DNA of 64,000 bases from a virus, in IMG/VR virus record IMGVR_UViG_3300045988_134537; one strand, written 5' to 3'. Numbering within the stretch: position 1 is the stretch's first letter; each line of letters begins with the position of its first letter. Under the pieces are notes generated by a model that saw only the letters and a list, made by a program, of their open reading frames with translations, searched no databases and had not been told where the DNA came from. Below are positions 1,600 to 57,654 of the stretch, in pieces. The translations under genes were made by a program, and so were the position numbers.

Positions 1600-1810
1600 G
1601 GCTGGTATTACTGCATGTACTACATTGGATAAATGTAGTTATGTTAGGTATGTTAGTACAGTTTGGAAAACATACCGTTGTACGCGGTTTATCTCCAGAC
1701 CGAAACGTGCCTTACTTGCCTGCACGTAAAATAGGACAAGGCTGTAGATTAAATTACAGGGTATAAACATGTAGCCTAACATGTAGGAACATGTTGTATC
1801 AAAACGCAAG
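1600..1810. promoter_or_regulatory. Cluster of ACATGT/TACATG-type palindromic half-sites (AACATGT three times at about 12-bp spacing, ACTACATT/AATGTAGT inverted repeat); candidate operator array
   Basis: Direct reading of repeated short palindromes in a non-coding stretch. Confidence 0.3.
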
Positions 1811-1870
1811 GACACAATCGCCTTTATTTGTGGCTAAGTTGTGTAGCAGACGGAAAATATAATAACAACA

Positions 1871-1969
1871 TAGTACGGGCCTGTACACAAGAACTACGTA
1901 CTAATTACGGGCTGTTGGTTGTAGCATAAAATCTCTATAGGATAGGAATGCGCGTCCGGTTCGATTCCG
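1871..1969 (+). ncRNA. Composite element copy 0: hairpin (7-bp stem TAGTACG/CGTACTA, 19-nt loop) followed by a tRNA-like T-arm (TCCGG-TTCGATT-CCGGA) and a partial acceptor-like pairing; not a canonical tRNA
   Basis: Canonical GGTTCGATTCC T-arm motif; element sits 30-35 nt upstream of gene start 2003; too short and lacks a D/anticodon cloverleaf. Confidence 0.4.
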
Positions 1970-2002
1970 GAGCAACCTCTAAATTATAAATAATATAATA
2001 GC

Positions 2003-2173
2003 ATGGAAAAGAAAGCAATGATCAACGCTTTAATTGAAGCGTTCAATAAATCTAAAAACAGTTGCGTAAAAATAACATTGCGTAACTATATCGAGACGGT
2101 GAAAGCACTAAGCGAAAGTGAGTACAAAGAGGCGGAAGGTTTCTATATTGAAGCACTTAACCGCTGGGGTTAA
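2003..2173 (+). CDS. small hypothetical protein, 56 aa (MEKKAMINALIEAFNKSKNSCVKITLRNYIETVKALSESEYKEAEGFYIEALNRWG), below the ORF-track size cutoff
   Basis: ATG-initiated ORF translated by hand; directly downstream of element copy 0 and abutting gene 2196..2402. Confidence 0.4.
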   Translation: MEKKAMINALIEAFNKSKNSCVKITLRNYIETVKALSESEYKEAEGFYIEALNRWG

Positions 2174-2195
2174 TTATAATTAAAGCATAAAGAAA

Positions 2196-2402
2196 ATGGA
2201 AAGGAAATTTAAATCTCACATGGTAGATGTCCGCGGTCTGTCCAGGAAAGAAGCCAAAGAAAAGCGGAAAAGAGTATATCGTGAATTTATGTTGTATCGT
2301 GATCTCAAAGAAGCGTATCATGCCGATACGGGAAAGGACAAATGCAAACGCAAAGTCCATACATCACGAACATACGTGAAGGAAAACATAAACAGTATTT
2401 AA
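2196..2402 (+). CDS. small basic hypothetical protein (68 aa, Lys/Arg-rich)
   Basis: Track ORF; followed by a strong hairpin + T-run. Confidence 0.5.
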   Translation: MERKFKSHMVDVRGLSRKEAKEKRKRVYREFMLYRDLKEAYHADTGKDKCKRKVHTSRTYVKENINSI

Positions 2403-2408
2403 ACAGGA

Positions 2409-2450
2409 GTAGGGTTGTTCCGAATATCGGAGCAGCCCTATTTTTGTATC
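2409..2450 (+). terminator. Rho-independent-type terminator: 8-bp stem TAGGGTTG/CAGCCCTA with inner TCCG/CGGA stem, followed by TTTTTG; flanked by alternative pairings GAGTAGG/CCTACTC and ATCCTAC/GTAGGAT
   Basis: Direct reading of inverted repeats and the downstream T-run. Confidence 0.5.
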
Positions 2451-2506
2451 CTACTCTTTCTATTTACGGGTAGGATATTCTGAGAGTGAACGGCGGATGT
2501 GAGCTA

Positions 2507-2603
2507 TATTGGTCTAAAACGAAACTAAAATATGATAGTTTGGATATAATGCCGGTATTTTGTCTATATCATGTCGTTAAAATTGGTCTAAAACGAAACT
2601 GTA
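2507..2603. repeat. Two copies of the 19-bp direct repeat ATTGGTCTAAAACGAAACT separated by about 55 bp; the second is followed by a GGCGG...CCGCC hairpin + T-run
   Basis: Direct reading; only two copies, repeat too short for CRISPR. Confidence 0.6.
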
Positions 2604-2929
2604 GGCGGTTTTCTGACCCAAAATATGGTGCCGGATGCCGCCTTTTTCGTCTCTATGGATTGAAAATTAGGCTTATTGTACTTTTCTTAAAAATAAGGTA
2701 TGATTGATTATCAATTAGTTAGGTTTTATAATACCCGTATTTTCGGACATACTTATTGTAAATTTTTTATTTTATGTGGTGGTTTTTATTAGTAGCTGAC
2801 CTGTATTTTTTATCGGTTGGAGTAAGGTCTATGTTAGAGTACGGACCAGATCAGTATAATATTGTGATGGTTTTTTGCTTTTCGTTTTTGGCTTTGATTA
2901 TAGGTCTGAATATCTATCTTGATAGGAGG

Positions 2930-3125
2930 AGCAGGCGGTAGGGCGTGGGCTGAAGTCTCTCTATTCTCTCTATGGAATGATATTATCTCTAAACACCCCA
3001 CACTCCATGCCAGAGTATAAGCTTGTAGCGCTCTCCGTATGCCGGTAGTGAGGCCGAGAGCGCAGTTTCTATGCGGAAAGCCGGAGGATTAGCGGGAGTT
3101 GGAGAGGGGGAGAGGGAGGGCACTC
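2930..3125. other. GC-rich structured segment inside the AT-rich 1-kb non-coding region: 8-bp inverted repeat GCGCTCTC/GAGAGCGC (about 3028-3063), CT-rich tract (about 2957-2982) complementary to GA-rich tract GGAGAGGGGGAGAGGGAGGG (about 3101-3120); candidate structured ncRNA or regulatory element
   Basis: Local GC content far above surroundings; long-range complementary tracts; no ORF. Confidence 0.3.
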
Positions 3126-3350
3126 TCTTCCAACAAGATTAAGACTTACAGCGTTTTAAAACAGTATTCTGTAGGTTTTCCAACAAAATAAAGTATGATA
3201 GCGTTTTAAAACAGTATTCTGTAGGTTTTCCAACAAAATAAAGTATGATAGCGTTTTAAAACAGTATTCTGTAGGTTTTCCAACAAAATTCAACAGATCA
3301 GTGCTTTAAAACGGCATAATGTGAGTTTATTCTACAAAATTCAATAGGTT
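3125..3350. repeat. 50-bp tandem repeat (AGCGTTTTAAAACAGTATTCTGTAGGTTTTCCAACAAAATAAAGTATGAT): 3 perfect copies plus flanking degenerate copies; each unit contains the palindrome GTTTTAAAAC
   Basis: Direct reading; period exactly 50 bp (GCGTTTTAAAAC at about 3151, 3201, 3251). Confidence 0.85.
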
Positions 3351-3418
3351 GAGAGTTGAAAACTATATTCTATAGATTAGTAGTAATCGGAATGTATAAC
3401 AATTAAAACATAAACAAC

Positions 3419-3679
3419 ATGAACGTATATGACTTTGCGCCTGACTTAGATTTGAGTAAGGAGGAAGAAGGTTCTATTTTTGGGGTAAAAGGAATAGAAG
3501 ACGGTGATGGTATAGTATATGCTAAGGTAGTTAGCTGTGAAGAAGTTAAGGATTACAGTTGTGAGGGGTGTATTTTTTATGATTGTTATAAGGATAAATG
3601 TTTATTATCGCGTAGTGATAGTTGTATAGATGGAGATTGGATTTGTAGGTACGAACAGGCTGCCATAGAGGGGGAGTAG
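3419..3679 (+). CDS. hypothetical Cys-rich acidic protein (86 aa)
   Basis: Track ORF, ATG start. Confidence 0.5.
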   Translation: MNVYDFAPDLDLSKEEEGSIFGVKGIEDGDGIVYAKVVSCEEVKDYSCEGCIFYDCYKDKCLLSRSDSCIDGDWICRYEQAAIEGE

Positions 3680-3787
3680 GCGGCGCCTTGGGCTAAGGCC
3701 TGCGGTTGTAGGTGGAGCGTAGGCCAGGGCAGAGCCGGAACAGTTTATTGTGGAACGTGAAAAGAACAGATAAAAAAAGGAGGAGAT

Positions 3788-3868
3788 ATGAAAAAGATAT
3801 TTAAGACATTCTCTATTATGTTTGTCATAGAAATAGTGTTGATAGCTATTTTAGATGCTATGGCGTAA
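3788..3868 (+). CDS. possible 26-aa hydrophobic peptide (MKKIFKTFSIMFVIEIVLIAILDAMA) preceded by AAAGGAGGAG
   Basis: Hand-translated; strong SD-like purine tract; very short. Confidence 0.25.
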   Translation: MKKIFKTFSIMFVIEIVLIAILDAMA

Positions 3869-3912
3869 GTGAGGAAGATTTTCTTCATTAATTTTCTTAT
3901 GCTTTAGACAGA

Positions 3913-3993
3913 ATGCTCCCGTCTGCGAAGATCGGAGTATTTGCTTTATGGGATTCATGGTGCAGTAGGTCGGTTCGATTCCGGCGATCTCAC
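3913..3993 (+). ncRNA. Composite element copy I: hairpin (stem ATGCTCC/GGAGTAT, loop CGTCTGCGAAGATC) + tRNA-like minihelix (TGGGATT acceptor-like strand, T-arm GTCGG-TTCGATT-CCGGC, GATCTCA, then C)
   Basis: 7/7 acceptor-like pairing including wobbles; canonical T-arm; 3' tail ATCTCACA-A-rich shared with copy II; 30 nt upstream of gene 4023. Confidence 0.45.
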
Positions 3994-4022
3994 ACAACAT
4001 TAAAAACAAAGGAGGAAAGAAA

Positions 4023-4364
4023 ATGAAAGATGGTATTACATTACATCCAGAACACGGATTGAATCCGTCTATAGAAGTCTGCATGATATGTGGCGAAGAG
4101 ATGGGCATTGCTTTATTAGGAAATAATATCAAAGGTCAGGCGCCGCATCATATATGCACGGGCGGAGTATGTGACGATTGCAAAAAGATAATAGATGATG
4201 GTGGTTGTTTTATTATCGAGGTTGAAGATGGATCAGATCAAAAGAATCCGTATCGTACAGGAAGATATTGTGCGATAAAGAAAGAGGCGGCAAAGAAGAT
4301 ATTTGGACAGGAGCATAATATTGTGTACATGGAAAAGTCTGCATACAGTCAAATAATACCATAA
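4023..4364 (+). CDS. hypothetical Cys-rich (zinc-ribbon-like) protein, 113 aa
   Basis: Track ORF; AAAGGAGGAAAG upstream; multiple CxxC pairs. Confidence 0.6.
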   Translation: MKDGITLHPEHGLNPSIEVCMICGEEMGIALLGNNIKGQAPHHICTGGVCDDCKKIIDDGGCFIIEVEDGSDQKNPYRTGRYCAIKKEAAKKIFGQEHNIVYMEKSAYSQIIP

Positions 4365-4378
4365 AAATAAAGAAGGAT

Positions 4379-4693
4379 ATGTTTACAAAAGAAGAGCGAT
4401 TATTCATATGGAAAAAGGTATATGAGATGATTGATAGGTTAGAGGATGGGGAATACATATGTGTTGCGTTAAGAAATGTAGTGTTTATGTATTTCAAAAC
4501 ACATAAAAATATCTATGAGTTTCGTTCAGACGAAATGGTGAGAATATATTTCCCGGAATTGGAGGAGAAGATAAGTATGGCCACAGAACCAGAGGAGACA
4601 AGAACGTTTTATGGGTGGTTTGGTTGTCTTAGTCCAGAAACGAAGGAGGTAAGGCTGAATATTGTGAAAGATATTATAAAAGAATTAGAATAG
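4379..4693 (+). CDS. hypothetical protein (104 aa)
   Basis: Track ORF, ATG. Confidence 0.55.
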   Translation: MFTKEERLFIWKKVYEMIDRLEDGEYICVALRNVVFMYFKTHKNIYEFRSDEMVRIYFPELEEKISMATEPEETRTFYGWFGCLSPETKEVRLNIVKDIIKELE

Positions 4694-4739
4694 TATTTTT
4701 GTTAATCTATTTTATTCATCAAATTAAGTTTTGGGTTTT

Positions 4740-4847
4740 GGCATGTCGGTTCGTGAGGATAGGCATGCCTATTTCTGCATCATAGAGGGGATGACGCGGC
4801 GTGCCGGTGCGTATGTGCCGGTCCTGGTTCGATTCTGGGCATCTCAC
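4740..4847 (+). ncRNA. Composite element copy II: hairpin (stem GGCATG/CATGCC, loop TCGGTTCGTGAGGATAGG) + D-armless tRNA-like structure (GGGGATG acceptor-like strand, GCCGG/CCGGT hairpin, T-arm CCTGG-TTCGATT-CTGGG, CATCTCA, then C)
   Basis: 6/7 acceptor-like pairing; canonical T-arm; same 3' tail as copy I; 22 nt upstream of gene 4869. Confidence 0.45.
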
Positions 4848-4868
4848 AAACAATAAAACAAAAAAGTT

Positions 4869-5078
4869 ATGAGAATATATAAGAATGATATTATAAAGGC
4901 GTCAGCAATAAGCACCGGAGCCGACAGAGGCGTGTTGCTGTGTTCAATAACAGATTCAGGCTTTACGTCTATAGCGGGCGTAATATCGGCTGTTAAGGAT
5001 AGGTTACCAAACGAAGATCACAAGAAGATGGTTTTTGAAATCTTGAATGATACGAAAAAAAGAGTACGGAAGATATAA
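4869..5078 (+). CDS. hypothetical protein (69 aa)
   Basis: Track ORF. Confidence 0.45.
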   Translation: MRIYKNDIIKASAISTGADRGVLLCSITDSGFTSIAGVISAVKDRLPNEDHKKMVFEILNDTKKRVRKI

Positions 5079-5160
5079 TAATTGCGGAACAAAAGTATTG
5101 TAATAAAGAGTAGAAAACAATATGTTTATGTAATATTAGTTTTTTCATTTTTATTGAAAG

Positions 5161-5195
5161 GAGCGCCGGCCTGTGAAGGTATGCGCTCTTTGTAT
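5161..5195 (+). terminator. Hairpin GAGCGC / GCGCTC with 16-nt loop CGGCCTGTGAAGGTAT followed by a T-rich tract; member of the conserved-loop hairpin family
   Basis: Direct reading. Confidence 0.5.
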
Positions 5196-5222: not shown

Positions 5223-5477
5223 ATGACAGATAATAACATAGATGTGAATATCGTACCTGTAAAGAATGGTATGAAACGTGTTGTGGTATCATATTACCAT
5301 TATTCACGCAAGGACAAAAATCACATGAGTTCCCAAACGGATTACGTTTGGGAAACAAAGAATGAAGAAATGTTTAAATACTTTGAGGCCAGGAGGACAA
5401 AAGTATTTTATAGTCAGATTCGTGCCATGTGTAGATTCTATGGCAAGAAAAATGTACGTAAATACAAAAAGTTATGA
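5223..5477 (+). CDS. hypothetical protein (84 aa)
   Basis: Track ORF. Confidence 0.5.
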   Translation: MTDNNIDVNIVPVKNGMKRVVVSYYHYSRKDKNHMSSQTDYVWETKNEEMFKYFEARRTKVFYSQIRAMCRFYGKKNVRKYKKL

Positions 5478-8347: not shown

Positions 8348-8365
8348 TTTTCCATGCGAGTTAGT

Positions 8366-8404
8366 TGCCGGCACTGGTCTGTGAAGATAGGTGCCGTTTT
8401 TTTT
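8366..8404 (+). terminator. Rho-independent terminator: stem CGGCAC/GTGCCG, 16-nt loop TGGTCTGTGAAGATAG, then T-run of about 10
   Basis: Direct reading; loop shares CTGTGAAGATAG with the other family members. Confidence 0.7.
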
Positions 8405-8426
8405 TATTCAAGAAAGGAGGACAAAG

Positions 8427-20866: not shown

Positions 20867-21337
20867 ATGAATCGCTGGTTTGAAATTACGGTAAAAGCCG
20901 AGATTGATAATATCGAGAACGGCAAAAAAAAGAAAGTAACTGAAAAGTATTTAGTGGATGCCTTGTCTTACACAGAGGCAGAATCAAGATCGTTGGAGAT
21001 CTTCAAGGATTTGTACAATTCTTTCGAGGTTGTAAAAATTAATCCTATTAAAGTGTCGGAAATCTTCTTCAACGGAGAAGCTGAGTACTGGTATAAGTGT
21101 AAGGTGAATTACATTACACTGGATGAAAAGAAAGGTAAAGAAAAGAAAACTCCATGCTATATGTATATCCAGGCCGGCAATCCTAAGGATGCCGAAGCTG
21201 TGTTGACTAAAGGTATGCAGGGTACGTTAGGAGACTGGAATTGCGAGTCTATTGTGGAAACGAAAATCATTGAAGTGTTTAAATACGATCTTCAGAAGGG
21301 AGCTGAAAAATTAGGCGAGAAGAAGAGTGAAGAGTAA
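20867..21337 (+). CDS. hypothetical protein (156 aa)
   Basis: Track ORF. Confidence 0.55.
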   Translation: MNRWFEITVKAEIDNIENGKKKKVTEKYLVDALSYTEAESRSLEIFKDLYNSFEVVKINPIKVSEIFFNGEAEYWYKCKVNYITLDEKKGKEKKTPCYMYIQAGNPKDAEAVLTKGMQGTLGDWNCESIVETKIIEVFKYDLQKGAEKLGEKKSEE

Positions 21338-41300: not shown

Positions 41301-41674
41301 TTTATCTACAAGAGCTATTCCATTGCATAGATCATTGGAATATCCTTTATTAGACCAATTTTCTTTTGTATATAATCCTCCATCTACATGTTGGATGTAT
41401 ATGCCTTTATTGATTATAAGCGAGGGATTTACCCCATCCCTATTTGAAATCTTCGTCTCATGATTTTTGTTTGCAAGATAGCAATAATTGACAACATAAA
41501 AGAAACCGGTTCCCTATCATCTCTGACTGAGAACCGGTAAGAAAACAATTTCAGAAAAAATTAAACCTACATAATCTTTCAAGTAAGAACAAAAAACGTA
41601 CAATCTACTCTTTGACGATGCTAATATAACATATTGGAATCATACAAAAACAATGCAAGTCCGATATTCTTCGT

Positions 41675-48128: not shown

Positions 48129-48238
48129 GTTAAAAATCAAGCATATCATAAAAAATAAAGCCACCTAACTTCTCAGTCTGATGGCTTAAAATGATATGAA
48201 AAAAAATTATAATCTGACGAAAAATCGTCAAGTTCAGC

Positions 48239-56943: not shown

Positions 56944-57230
56944 GATAAAAAAAATAGGCCCAAAAGAGAATGTCAGATCCCACTATGACAAACCCTAATG
57001 AGCCAAAAATATCTTTCAACATCAAACAACCAGAGGTGGGATCTCGTTGTTCATTGTTTCTGAAACAAAGATAGGAACAGGATCTTAAATAGCAAATATT
57101 TTAATACTTTTTAAATCAAACCAGGGCCCGCATCACTGCGAACCCTGATCTACACTAATCTAAACTAATACCATGAAAAACTTAAATCTAAAAACTAAAG
57201 AACACACAAATGTATGAAAATGTATGCTTT

Positions 57231-57428: not shown

Positions 57429-57654
57429 TTCCTACTGTTATTAGTTACGTTCGGTTCTTACTTTTTCCTTATTTCCATAATCCCTTCCTGAAACTAATAT
57501 CGCAAACTTAACAAAAAATAATCCATAAACAATGAAAACCTAACTTTTCTTGTATGTTATTGATATACGTACATATATGAGAAAAGTGAGACTTTCACAA
57601 GCCTCACTTCCCAAATTGTGATTATGAAAAAACTATATCATATATATACAAAAA

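Follow-up and report, generated by a model that had tools for sequence, protein, structure and literature searches.

In tRNA punctuation, a tRNA-shaped element between RNA segments lets ribonuclease (RNase) P and RNase Z define the RNA ends, and the same holds for MALAT1/mascRNA, where an upstream stable structure stays at the new 3' end after the cut and a small tRNA-like RNA is released. Non-decoding RNAs are also encoded in the tRNA cluster of phage T4 (the stable RNAs called species 1 and 2, and RNA C and D), and to our knowledge their function is still unknown. Bacterial RNase P cuts model hairpins that consist of just an acceptor stem, a T stem and a T loop, and does so at the canonical site; the phage M3 and C4 RNAs are natural substrates of this enzyme (PMC11143913). 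In T4-type phages, promoter-early stem-loop (PeSL) cassettes are found at sites of gene replacement (PMC2839356, PMC4122927). Here we describe three tRNA-like structures (TLS-I, TLS-II and TLS-III), each located in a conserved cassette, in a 64,000-nucleotide stretch of DNA from a gut crAss-like phage (IMG/VR record IMGVR_UViG_3300045988_134537), the whole of which is referred to as the window. Each of the three sites is a tRNA-derived structure, with an acceptor stem stacked on a canonical 5-bp T-arm and without an anticodon.

The exact 10-mer GGTTCGATTC is present at three sites in the whole window (1958, 3972 and 4826), all on the plus strand and within 2.9 kb. The expected count is 0.10 and none of 100 shuffles reaches three, in agreement with a sequence-only reading of this DNA which had placed three such elements here on the plus strand. 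At each site the 10-mer forms the core of a T-arm with a 5-bp stem, a UUCGAUU loop and the G53-C61 pair, and the segment GG-UUCGAUU-C has in all three cases the T54-T55-C56-R57-A58 loop and the G53-C61 pair of tRNA. The 7 nt that follow the T-arm pair with an upstream 7-mer and thereby form an acceptor-like stem of 6-7 bp (coordinates in Table 1). The sequence-only reading had assigned the acceptor strands TGGGATT and GGGGATG, together with the tail ATCTCACA, to copies I and II, but these are shared by copies II and III; it had also ended copy I at 1969, which is ten nucleotides too early. In TLS-II the GG of the linker is invariant, and a short GG-containing linker of this kind, joining acceptor and T-arm, could be a mimic of the D-loop. 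Covariance-model scores are 119.7 bits for TLS-II and 30.4 bits for TLS-III. The leaders between hairpin and TLS are 8-17 nt long in the window, and the spacing from the discriminator to the ATG is 23, 29 and 21 nt for TLS-I, TLS-II and TLS-III, respectively.

Conservation and covariation in related genomes, by which the earlier reading had proposed to judge the elements, are both present. A pattern scan of viral contigs gave at least 120 loci; among the matches listed, distinct versions number 26 for class I, 44 for class II and 45 for class III, and the structures are kept in more than 100 related contigs with substitutions that preserve the pairs. For class I, 96.5% of the cells in the alignment are paired (32-45% in slid controls), and both the inner arm and the T stem show double compensatory changes. 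For class II the corresponding value is 97.1% (slid controls 39-49%), and both partners vary in 10 pairs, compared with 1.4 in shuffles (none of 500 attains 10), in an alignment that includes two rows not belonging to class II, from which some of the double changes originate. Class III has 97.5% paired cells (slid controls 27-52%), 18 additional pair types mediated by wobble, and few broken cells. The T stems are 98-100% paired in relatives of all three classes, and position 1:72 is never paired in relatives of class I or III. Two contigs (L040 and L072) have lost precisely the extra arm of TLS-III and retain a minihelix similar to TLS-II, and in one class II variant the G.U wobble has moved from 3:70 to 4:69.

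As the sequence-only reading had proposed, the structures are tRNA-like but do not correspond to decoding tRNAs. With default settings, ARAGORN calls no gene at all in the window (neither tRNA nor tmRNA, i.e. transfer-messenger RNA) and thus no cloverleaf, as had been expected, and it finds none at the homologous sites of relatives; it does call the genuine Met/Gln/Arg/Cys tRNA cluster of the relatives ~9 kb upstream of these sites. The comparison with covariance models has the same outcome, since Rfam 15 gives no match at the gathering score and nothing tRNA-like (no tRNA clan) at E<=10 over positions 1700-5000. When slices containing only the TLS are used, the sole related match is that of the 17-nt T-arm to positions 347-363 of the tmRNA model, with 6.2 bits (gathering score 47). 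None of the three TLS carries a conserved anticodon in the 7-nt loop of an anticodon arm: the region where it would be expected is a 13-nt linker in TLS-II, an arm with a 4-nt loop that two relatives have deleted in TLS-III, and in TLS-I an arm whose 5-nt loop varies (CUAUA, GUACA, GUAUA and AUAUA).

Several other identities were considered and rejected. Ordinary tRNAs that had been mis-folded are ruled out by the default ARAGORN and Rfam results. The non-default ARAGORN models, obtained with introns allowed or with an 80% threshold, disrupt helices that are 99-100% paired in relatives; the intron-mode 'tRNA-Val' at 4739-4847 requires a 21-nt intron and destroys the hairpin upstream of TLS-III, H1(III), which is 100% paired in relatives, and the sub-threshold 'tRNA-Pro' and 'tRNA-Thr' obtained at 80% have anticodons that are unconserved in relatives. 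A tmRNA is rejected because ARAGORN calls none at default, the Rfam model matches the T-arm alone and the two halves of the TLS are merely 13-32 nt apart. Concerning known Rfam families, a weak match to BTnc231 (E = 0.54) covers the hairpin only, which resembles the terminator of that small RNA. Bacterial Y RNA (YrlA), in which a Ro/Rsr-binding stem is attached to a tRNA-like module, has no Rfam match at E<=10, and the acceptor stem has free ends followed by an mRNA leader. A tRNA fragment at a phage attachment site (attP) or in an integrative element, for which one part of a tRNA gene (usually the 3' part) in a single copy would be expected, does not fit either, as both acceptor strands are present and paired, there are three co-oriented copies per genome, and the acceptors covary between lineages. 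An alanine identity (G3:U70) is not a general feature, being absent from most families. Two small open reading frames (ORFs) run across the elements (3913-4026 and 4731-4856). The ATG at 3913 is replaced by GTG or ACG in relatives with a compensating change on the opposite strand of the stem, and since this ATG varies together with its pairing partner, the 37-codon ORF at 3913 is taken to be non-coding. A literature search found no description of these elements.

The same layout was found in other phage lineages with a broader scan pattern, which asks only for the hairpin apex GTGAGGATA followed after 40-70 nt by a T-loop. The contigs concerned are ~7-90 kb long and share only a few distant proteins with the window. 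Their acceptor stems are unrelated in sequence and fully paired (GGGCGGU/ACCGUCC, UGGGACG/CGUCCCA, CGGAUGC/GCAUCCG, UGGGAAG/CUUCCCA, AGGGGAU/AUCCCCU and GGAUCCG/CGGAUUC). All three copies in the window and most other families have an acceptor/T stack of 7 + 5 bp, and the region from acceptor to T-arm is highly variable across lineages (12 to ~65 nt). Some copies in other lineages retain a D-arm; a credible anticodon loop was found in none. An unrelated contig of 43.8 kb (L140) carries four modules within 3.2 kb, with the bare minihelix form and a canonical D-arm, and the cultured Bacteroides fragilis phage BF1-TP2 has, at ~3756-3947 of PQ571263, the box, the hairpin and a 118-nt TLS with a tRNA-Leu-like D-arm, at which ARAGORN calls no tRNA. 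The G3:U70 wobble is present in TLS-II, TLS-III and the type represented by L124, which additionally has A73. In a scan of genome contigs chance matches dominate, and among the matches listed one is a true module, located in a Bacteroides metagenome-assembled genome.

Bare acceptor/T-arm minihelices with linkers of 8-16 nt are also seen in viral contigs without the gut-phage hairpin (L301, L244, L238 and L314; e.g. GGTGGGA-AATCTTGG-CAAGGTTCGATTCCTTG-TCCCACC-A), and anticodon-less tRNA mimics may be more general among phages. Two coding sequences annotated as 'hypothetical protein' exactly cover hairpin + TLS modules, namely WOZ57404.1 of crAssE-Sib (L001 2541-2699) and gp8 of BF1-TP2 (L447 1546-1710); both are probably spurious gene calls. 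A homologue of the DUF4494-family gene at 20867-21337 adjoins a hairpin + TLS module in L153, L163 and BF1-TP2, and no module is found beside the copy in the window.

The cassettes have the order conserved box, GNRA-capped hairpin, TLS, A-rich leader of ~20-30 nt and ATG. As the sequence-only reading had described, a hairpin lies upstream of each TLS. The picture of one composite element made up of hairpin and minihelix is nevertheless wrong, because the hairpin is an independent cassette element that recurs throughout the genome, often without a TLS. The window contains at least 8 cassettes of box and GNRA hairpin, and 14 GNRA-capped hairpins of cassette design against 4.2 in shuffles. The apex of the hairpin is conserved (N-GUYN-GNRA-NRAU-N), while its lower stem differs in sequence yet remains paired; the outer stem in cassette I is 100% paired in 21 distinct relatives. 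The preceding box has the form TTTTTYCAT-N(7-12)-(G)TTTAG and, as GTTTTTCATGGTATTAGTTTAG (21-22 nt), is almost identical in the otherwise unrelated gut phages L153, L142, L166 and L447, always a few nucleotides upstream of a GNRA hairpin. Judged from its sequence, this box probably represents a promoter class, and the box of cassette II is promoter-like; the box spacing departs from the Bacteroides -33/-7 consensus. Most hairpin copies have U-rich tails, and a role as a 5'-terminal stabiliser, a terminator/attenuator or a loading site for an antitermination factor would fit the hairpin. Pause hairpins that load an antitermination factor are known from the leaders of Bacteroides capsule operons (PMC11685472). 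In the relative L034, the hairpin type of the cassettes also stands in front of a genuine tRNA-Met that heads a tRNA cluster, 5 nt before the mature 5' end of this tRNA, and in the L123 type it precedes tRNA-Gln.

What follows the cassette is variable. The downstream contexts of class I fall into clusters of 34 and 14, those of class II into 59, 42, 3, 1, 1 and 1, and those of class III into 67, 28, 2 and 1, with upstream sequence that is constant in classes I and II and nearly constant in class III. The divergence begins immediately past the TLS tail, and one class II copy is joined to class III downstream sequence. Of the 21 families defined by their acceptors, 16 have 17-32 nt between the end of the TLS and the ATG, whatever the downstream gene. 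A gene-specific leader, which would require a conserved downstream gene, is ruled out by these differing genes. As found for PeSLs, a conserved intergenic stem-loop cassette thus recurs ahead of ORFans at the borders of gene replacement, with at least two downstream contexts per TLS class. We infer that the cassettes are mosaic junctions at which downstream ORFans are swapped, as at the PeSLs of T4, and that they act as recombination junctions because they are conserved repeats.

We tentatively favour the interpretation that the TLS are RNase P/RNase Z processing sites in the leaders of the cassettes, where the cuts would release small tRNA mimics, and put its chances at a little short of even. 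The cassette would be transcribed as one RNA, and the enzymes that mature the tRNA ends of the host would take the TLS for a pre-tRNA. RNase P would then cut at the 5' end of the acceptor and detach the hairpin-bearing leader, and RNase Z or another 3' nuclease would cut after the discriminator, so that the mRNA would begin with a short A-rich leader free of structure, and a small, stable mimic of tRNA able to receive CCA would be set free. All three structures have the layout of a minimal RNase P substrate, i.e. a stack of acceptor and T stem of ~12 bp that ends in a T-loop and is flanked by a single-stranded 5' leader and a 3' tail. Processing is favoured because the features that are retained (the 12-bp stack, the T-loop, the GG linker, by which the elbow could be closed, the single-stranded flanks and no encoded CCA) are those read by tRNA end-processing enzymes. 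It gains support from L034, since a genuine tRNA-Met, which RNase P has to cut at its 5' end, is there preceded by the same hairpin. The true tRNAs of the phage also have no encoded CCA and therefore need the same 3' processing as the TLS. Also counted in favour are the hairpin before tRNA-Gln in the L123 type, the 17-32 nt between TLS and ATG that most families keep even with differing genes, and the change of downstream context right past the TLS with upstream sequence that stays the same.

A number of points weigh against processing. The cleavage is entirely inferred from sequence. The mismatch at 1:72 in TLS-I (U.U) and TLS-III (G.A) and the lack of an encoded CCA could lower the efficiency of RNase P or shift the cut, and an mRNA that has lost its 5' hairpin and starts with a 5'-monophosphate could become less stable instead of profiting from the cut. 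Since TLS-free cassettes are evidently functional, the TLS is an optional add-on. In class III there are zero double compensatory changes. Folding of each element, which the earlier reading had suggested, gave energies for the single sequences that are no better than those of shuffles (z = -0.1 to -0.9), and the structure is for this reason judged on comparative data and not on thermodynamics. About one chance match per element is expected with the first descriptor (>=6/7 pairs within 70 nt), and when acceptor pairing was tested by shuffling family by family, individual elements were only modestly significant (p = 0.008-0.6), the test having low power for 7-mers; the case is consequently built on the covariation within families, on the many 7/7 Watson-Crick stems and on a 5' strand that consistently lies just after the hairpin.

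Instead of the cut, the product may be what matters, in that abundant stable tRNA mimics act in trans as decoys or sponges for host factors that bind the acceptor/T-arm, but this we consider unlikely. Targets might be tRNA-targeting defence toxins, the CCA-adding enzyme, modification enzymes or EF-Tu, and the copies with G3:U70 might be alanine-charged minihelices. The cassette of box and hairpin drives genuine tRNAs in relatives, which suggests that it is used for abundant stable RNAs, and the recurrence of the bare minihelix in the unrelated L140, with its four modules in 3.2 kb, is in line with a function of the RNA itself, as are the G3:U70 wobble of TLS-II, TLS-III and the L124 type and the A73 of the latter. 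Some relatives moreover encode a 220-aa CCA-adding-like nucleotidyltransferase; this gene is however missing from the window. The G3:U70 wobble is also unconserved across families and is even displaced to 4:69 in a variant of class II, a conserved set of identity elements was not found, and the tight coupling of 17-32 nt to the start codon is needless for an RNA that acts in trans. It is tempting to speculate further that in Bacteroides phages of several lineages, including epsilon crAss-like ones, a shared promoter-hairpin cassette mass-produces anticodon-less tRNA mimics that are processed by the host, tailed with CCA and active in trans (e.g. as decoys against toxins that attack acceptor ends, or as sponges for tRNA-binding factors), the variable inserted arms being effector domains on a tRNA scaffold; this wider proposal appears no less doubtful. 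Rather improbable is an uncleaved cis element of the 5' untranslated region (UTR), whose compact autonomous fold would insulate the A-rich ribosome-loading leader or protect the 5' region of the mRNA. Such an element would account for the short and constant distance to the ATG across differing downstream genes, for leaders that are A-rich as expected for translation initiation in Bacteroidota, and for a TLS that is modular and optional. Any stable hairpin would do for this purpose, however, which leaves the strict retention of the T-loop, the G53-C61 pair and the 12-bp stack across lineages unexplained, and the upstream hairpin already provides a stable 5' structure.

We regard it as quite improbable that the TLS are decaying remnants of tRNA genes which once stood behind the cassette promoter and now hitch-hike in repeated, recombining cassettes. 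Real tRNAs do fill the same slot in relatives, recognisable tRNA parts are kept (the canonical D-arm of L140 and the tRNA-Leu-like D-arm of BF1-TP2), and the middle regions are highly variable. Against decay, the stem substitutions are overwhelmingly pair-preserving, the T-loop is invariant and the minimal form is conserved between unrelated phages; since it is always the anticodon and D parts that are lost and never the acceptor/T half, selective retention is indicated rather than random decay. Least probable of all is a function at the DNA level, i.e. PeSL-like recombination linkers, N4-like promoter hairpins for a phage RNA polymerase, or replication or packaging signals near a terminus. 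The contexts switch exactly past the TLS, with one class II copy fused to class III downstream sequence, none of the three copies is more than ~2.5 kb away from the inferred crAssE-Sib terminus, and the virion RNA polymerase of crAss-like phages prefers single-stranded templates in vitro (10.1101/2020.03.07.982082). Homologous recombination nevertheless needs no tRNA-shaped repeat, and conservation of pairs through G.U is strand-specific (G.U is A.C on the opposite strand) and would not be explained by a role in DNA. Furthermore, every copy is co-oriented with its genes, and the modules also occur in phages of 30-70 kb that share just a few distant proteins with the window.

Table 1. Positions of the TLS, hairpins, boxes and downstream units in the window
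Feature	Position	Strand	Description
Hairpin of cassette I	1871-1903	+	7-bp outer stem 1871-1877/1897-1903, inner tetraloop hairpin; loop ACAA, GCAA or GAAA among relatives
TLS-I	1916-1979	+	64 nt; acceptor 1916-1922/1972-1978, 6/7 pairs, 1:72 = U.U; T-arm 1955-1971; discriminator C1979
TLS-I, long arm	1924-1927/1948-1951 and 1931-1934/1940-1943	+	Capped by a variable 5-nt loop
Unit I, downstream	1980-2173	+	A-rich 23-nt leader; 56-aa ORF 2003-2173; second ORF 2196-2402; no family match
Terminator-like hairpin	2403-2447	+	Strong; perfect 21 bp, then UUUUUGU; -32.1 kcal/mol, z = -10.6; last part of the unit of two genes that begins with TLS-I, right at the inferred end of the genome
Box of cassette II	3878-3909	+	TTTTCTTCAT...GCTTTAGAC; nearly invariant in 44 distinct relatives
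Hairpin H1(II)	3913-3940	+	AUGCUCC-C-GUCU-GCGA-AGAU-C-GGAGUAU, GNRA loop; 5/6 lower-stem pairs vary on both sides
TLS-II	3949-3993	+	45-nt minihelix; acceptor 3949-3955/3986-3992, 7/7 pairs (2 G.U); T-arm 3969-3985; discriminator C3993
TLS-II, sequence parts		+	Acceptor UGGGAUU/GAUCUCA; 13-nt linker CAUGGUGCAGUAG; T-arm GUCGG-UUCGAUU-CCGGC
Unit II, downstream	3994-4364	+	A-rich 29-nt leader with AAAGGAGGA; 113-aa ORF 4023-4364; only match phrog_11852 (function unknown)
Box of cassette III	4710-4734	+	TTTTATTCAT-N7-AGTTTTGG; conserved
Hairpin H1(III)	4740-4769	+	GGCAUGUC-G-GUUC-GUGA-GGAU-A-GGCAUGCC; 100% paired in 29 distinct sequences, 5 pairs vary by wobble
TLS-III	4787-4847	+	61 nt; acceptor GGGGAUG/CAUCUCA 4787-4793/4840-4846, 6/7 pairs, 1:72 = G.A; T-arm 4823-4839; discriminator C4847
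TLS-III, inner parts	4803-4822 (hairpin)	+	Linker ACGCGGCGU; extra dispensable 8-bp hairpin
Unit III, downstream	4848-5078	+	A-rich 21-nt leader; 69-aa ORF 4869-5078
Cassette without TLS	5139-5188	+	Box GTTTTTTCAT; GUGA-capped hairpin 5161-5188; ORF at 5223 downstream; 24.0 bits
Cassette without TLS	8349-8406	+	Box TTTTCCAT..GTTAG; hairpin 8369-8396 (GUCU-GUGA-AGAU apex); U9; leader; ATG 8428; z = -3.3
Similar hairpin without exact box	41505-41538	-	TTTTTTCTG upstream
Cassette without TLS	48158-48187	-	Box, GAGA-capped hairpin and U-tract
Cassette without TLS	57117-57179	-	Exact box GTTTTTCATGGTATTAGTTTAG (57158-57179); GUGA-capped 16-bp hairpin 57117-57152; z = -6.3
Cassette without TLS	57581-57612	-	Box and hairpin

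The ORFs near the TLS are all small and on the plus strand, and a family search gave no matches for them apart from phrog_11852. The end of the crAssE-Sib record was set by PhageTerm (PMC11054128) and corresponds to window position ~2485. One end of the genome would then be ~0.5 kb away from copy I, and copies II and III would lie inside the opposite end, at a distance of 1.4-2.4 kb. From this position, a location of the TLS cassettes in an early region is plausible. A tandem repeat with a 50-nt unit is found at 3128-3312, between TLS-I and TLS-II and just inside the inferred terminus (3.2 copies at 94% identity, ~3.7 if degenerate ones are included); it could represent iterons, an origin or a packaging-related repeat. 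The direct repeat GGTCTAAAACGAAACT occurs twice, ~75 nt apart, at 2510-2600, beside the position of the crAssE-Sib record end. A GC-rich intergenic stretch (~65-70%) at 3680-3745 lies in an AT-rich region and folds to -30.8 kcal/mol (z = -2.1). The 220-aa nucleotidyltransferase, annotated as poly(A) polymerase or CCA-adding-like, is encoded at 137063-137725 in crAssE-Sib (L446 35764-36426) and in some relatives. A tblastn search of the window for this gene gave no match, and a tie between the TLS and the nucleotidyltransferase was accordingly rejected.

If the TLS are processing sites, they would represent tRNA punctuation in a bacterial virus and show how abundant gut phages of the crAss-like type shape their early mRNAs; if it is true that the released RNAs act in trans, they would form a new class of phage tRNA mimics. 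Recognition of the modules improves annotation, in which they now appear as small hypothetical proteins (WOZ57404.1 and BF1-TP2 gp8), and the cassette of box, hairpin, TLS and leader is a possible expression or insulation part for the engineering of Bacteroides. The question is directly testable, since a cultured pair of host and phage that carries the module exists (B. fragilis BL19 and BF1-TP2).

The TLS can be compared most closely with minimal RNase P substrates, the C4 RNA of P1/P7 and the M3 RNA of phi80, with which they share the coaxial helix of acceptor and T stem, the T-loop, the single-stranded 5' leader and the absence of an anticodon domain; C4 and M3 are, like the TLS, phage-encoded RNAs other than tRNA (PMC11143913). 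Unlike C4 and M3, the TLS are putative substrates, have no encoded CCA and are embedded in mRNA leaders just before ORFs, not in the precursor of an antisense RNA. The tRNA punctuation and MALAT1/mascRNA systems are mitochondrial or nuclear, whereas the host is here bacterial and the TLS form part of a 5' leader; what precedes the tRNA-like element is a triple helix in MALAT1 and a GNRA hairpin in the cassettes. The tRNA-like domain of tmRNA has the layout also seen in TLS-II and in TLS-III devoid of its arm (acceptor, unpaired GG-containing analogue of the D-loop, T-arm and G3:U70). In contrast to tmRNA, the TLS have no internal mRNA-like domain, tag ORF or pseudoknots, their match is limited to the 17-nt T-arm with 6.2 bits, and G3:U70 is not conserved across families. 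The stable RNAs of T4 are likewise phage-encoded, tRNA-associated, small and non-decoding, but have no sequence relationship to the TLS and are encoded within the tRNA cluster rather than in mRNA leaders. Like the PeSLs of T4-type phages, the TLS cassettes are conserved intergenic units of ~100 bp in which a promoter-like box is followed by a stem-loop and a leader, and they precede small ORFans at sites of gene replacement; box sequence and host differ, the promoter and terminator roles are here putative, and PeSLs are without a tRNA-like module. Both tRNA-like processing signals and PeSL-like cassettes are thus of known kinds, and it is their combination, together with a widespread family of anticodon-less tRNA mimics in the leaders of Bacteroides phages, that appears to be new.

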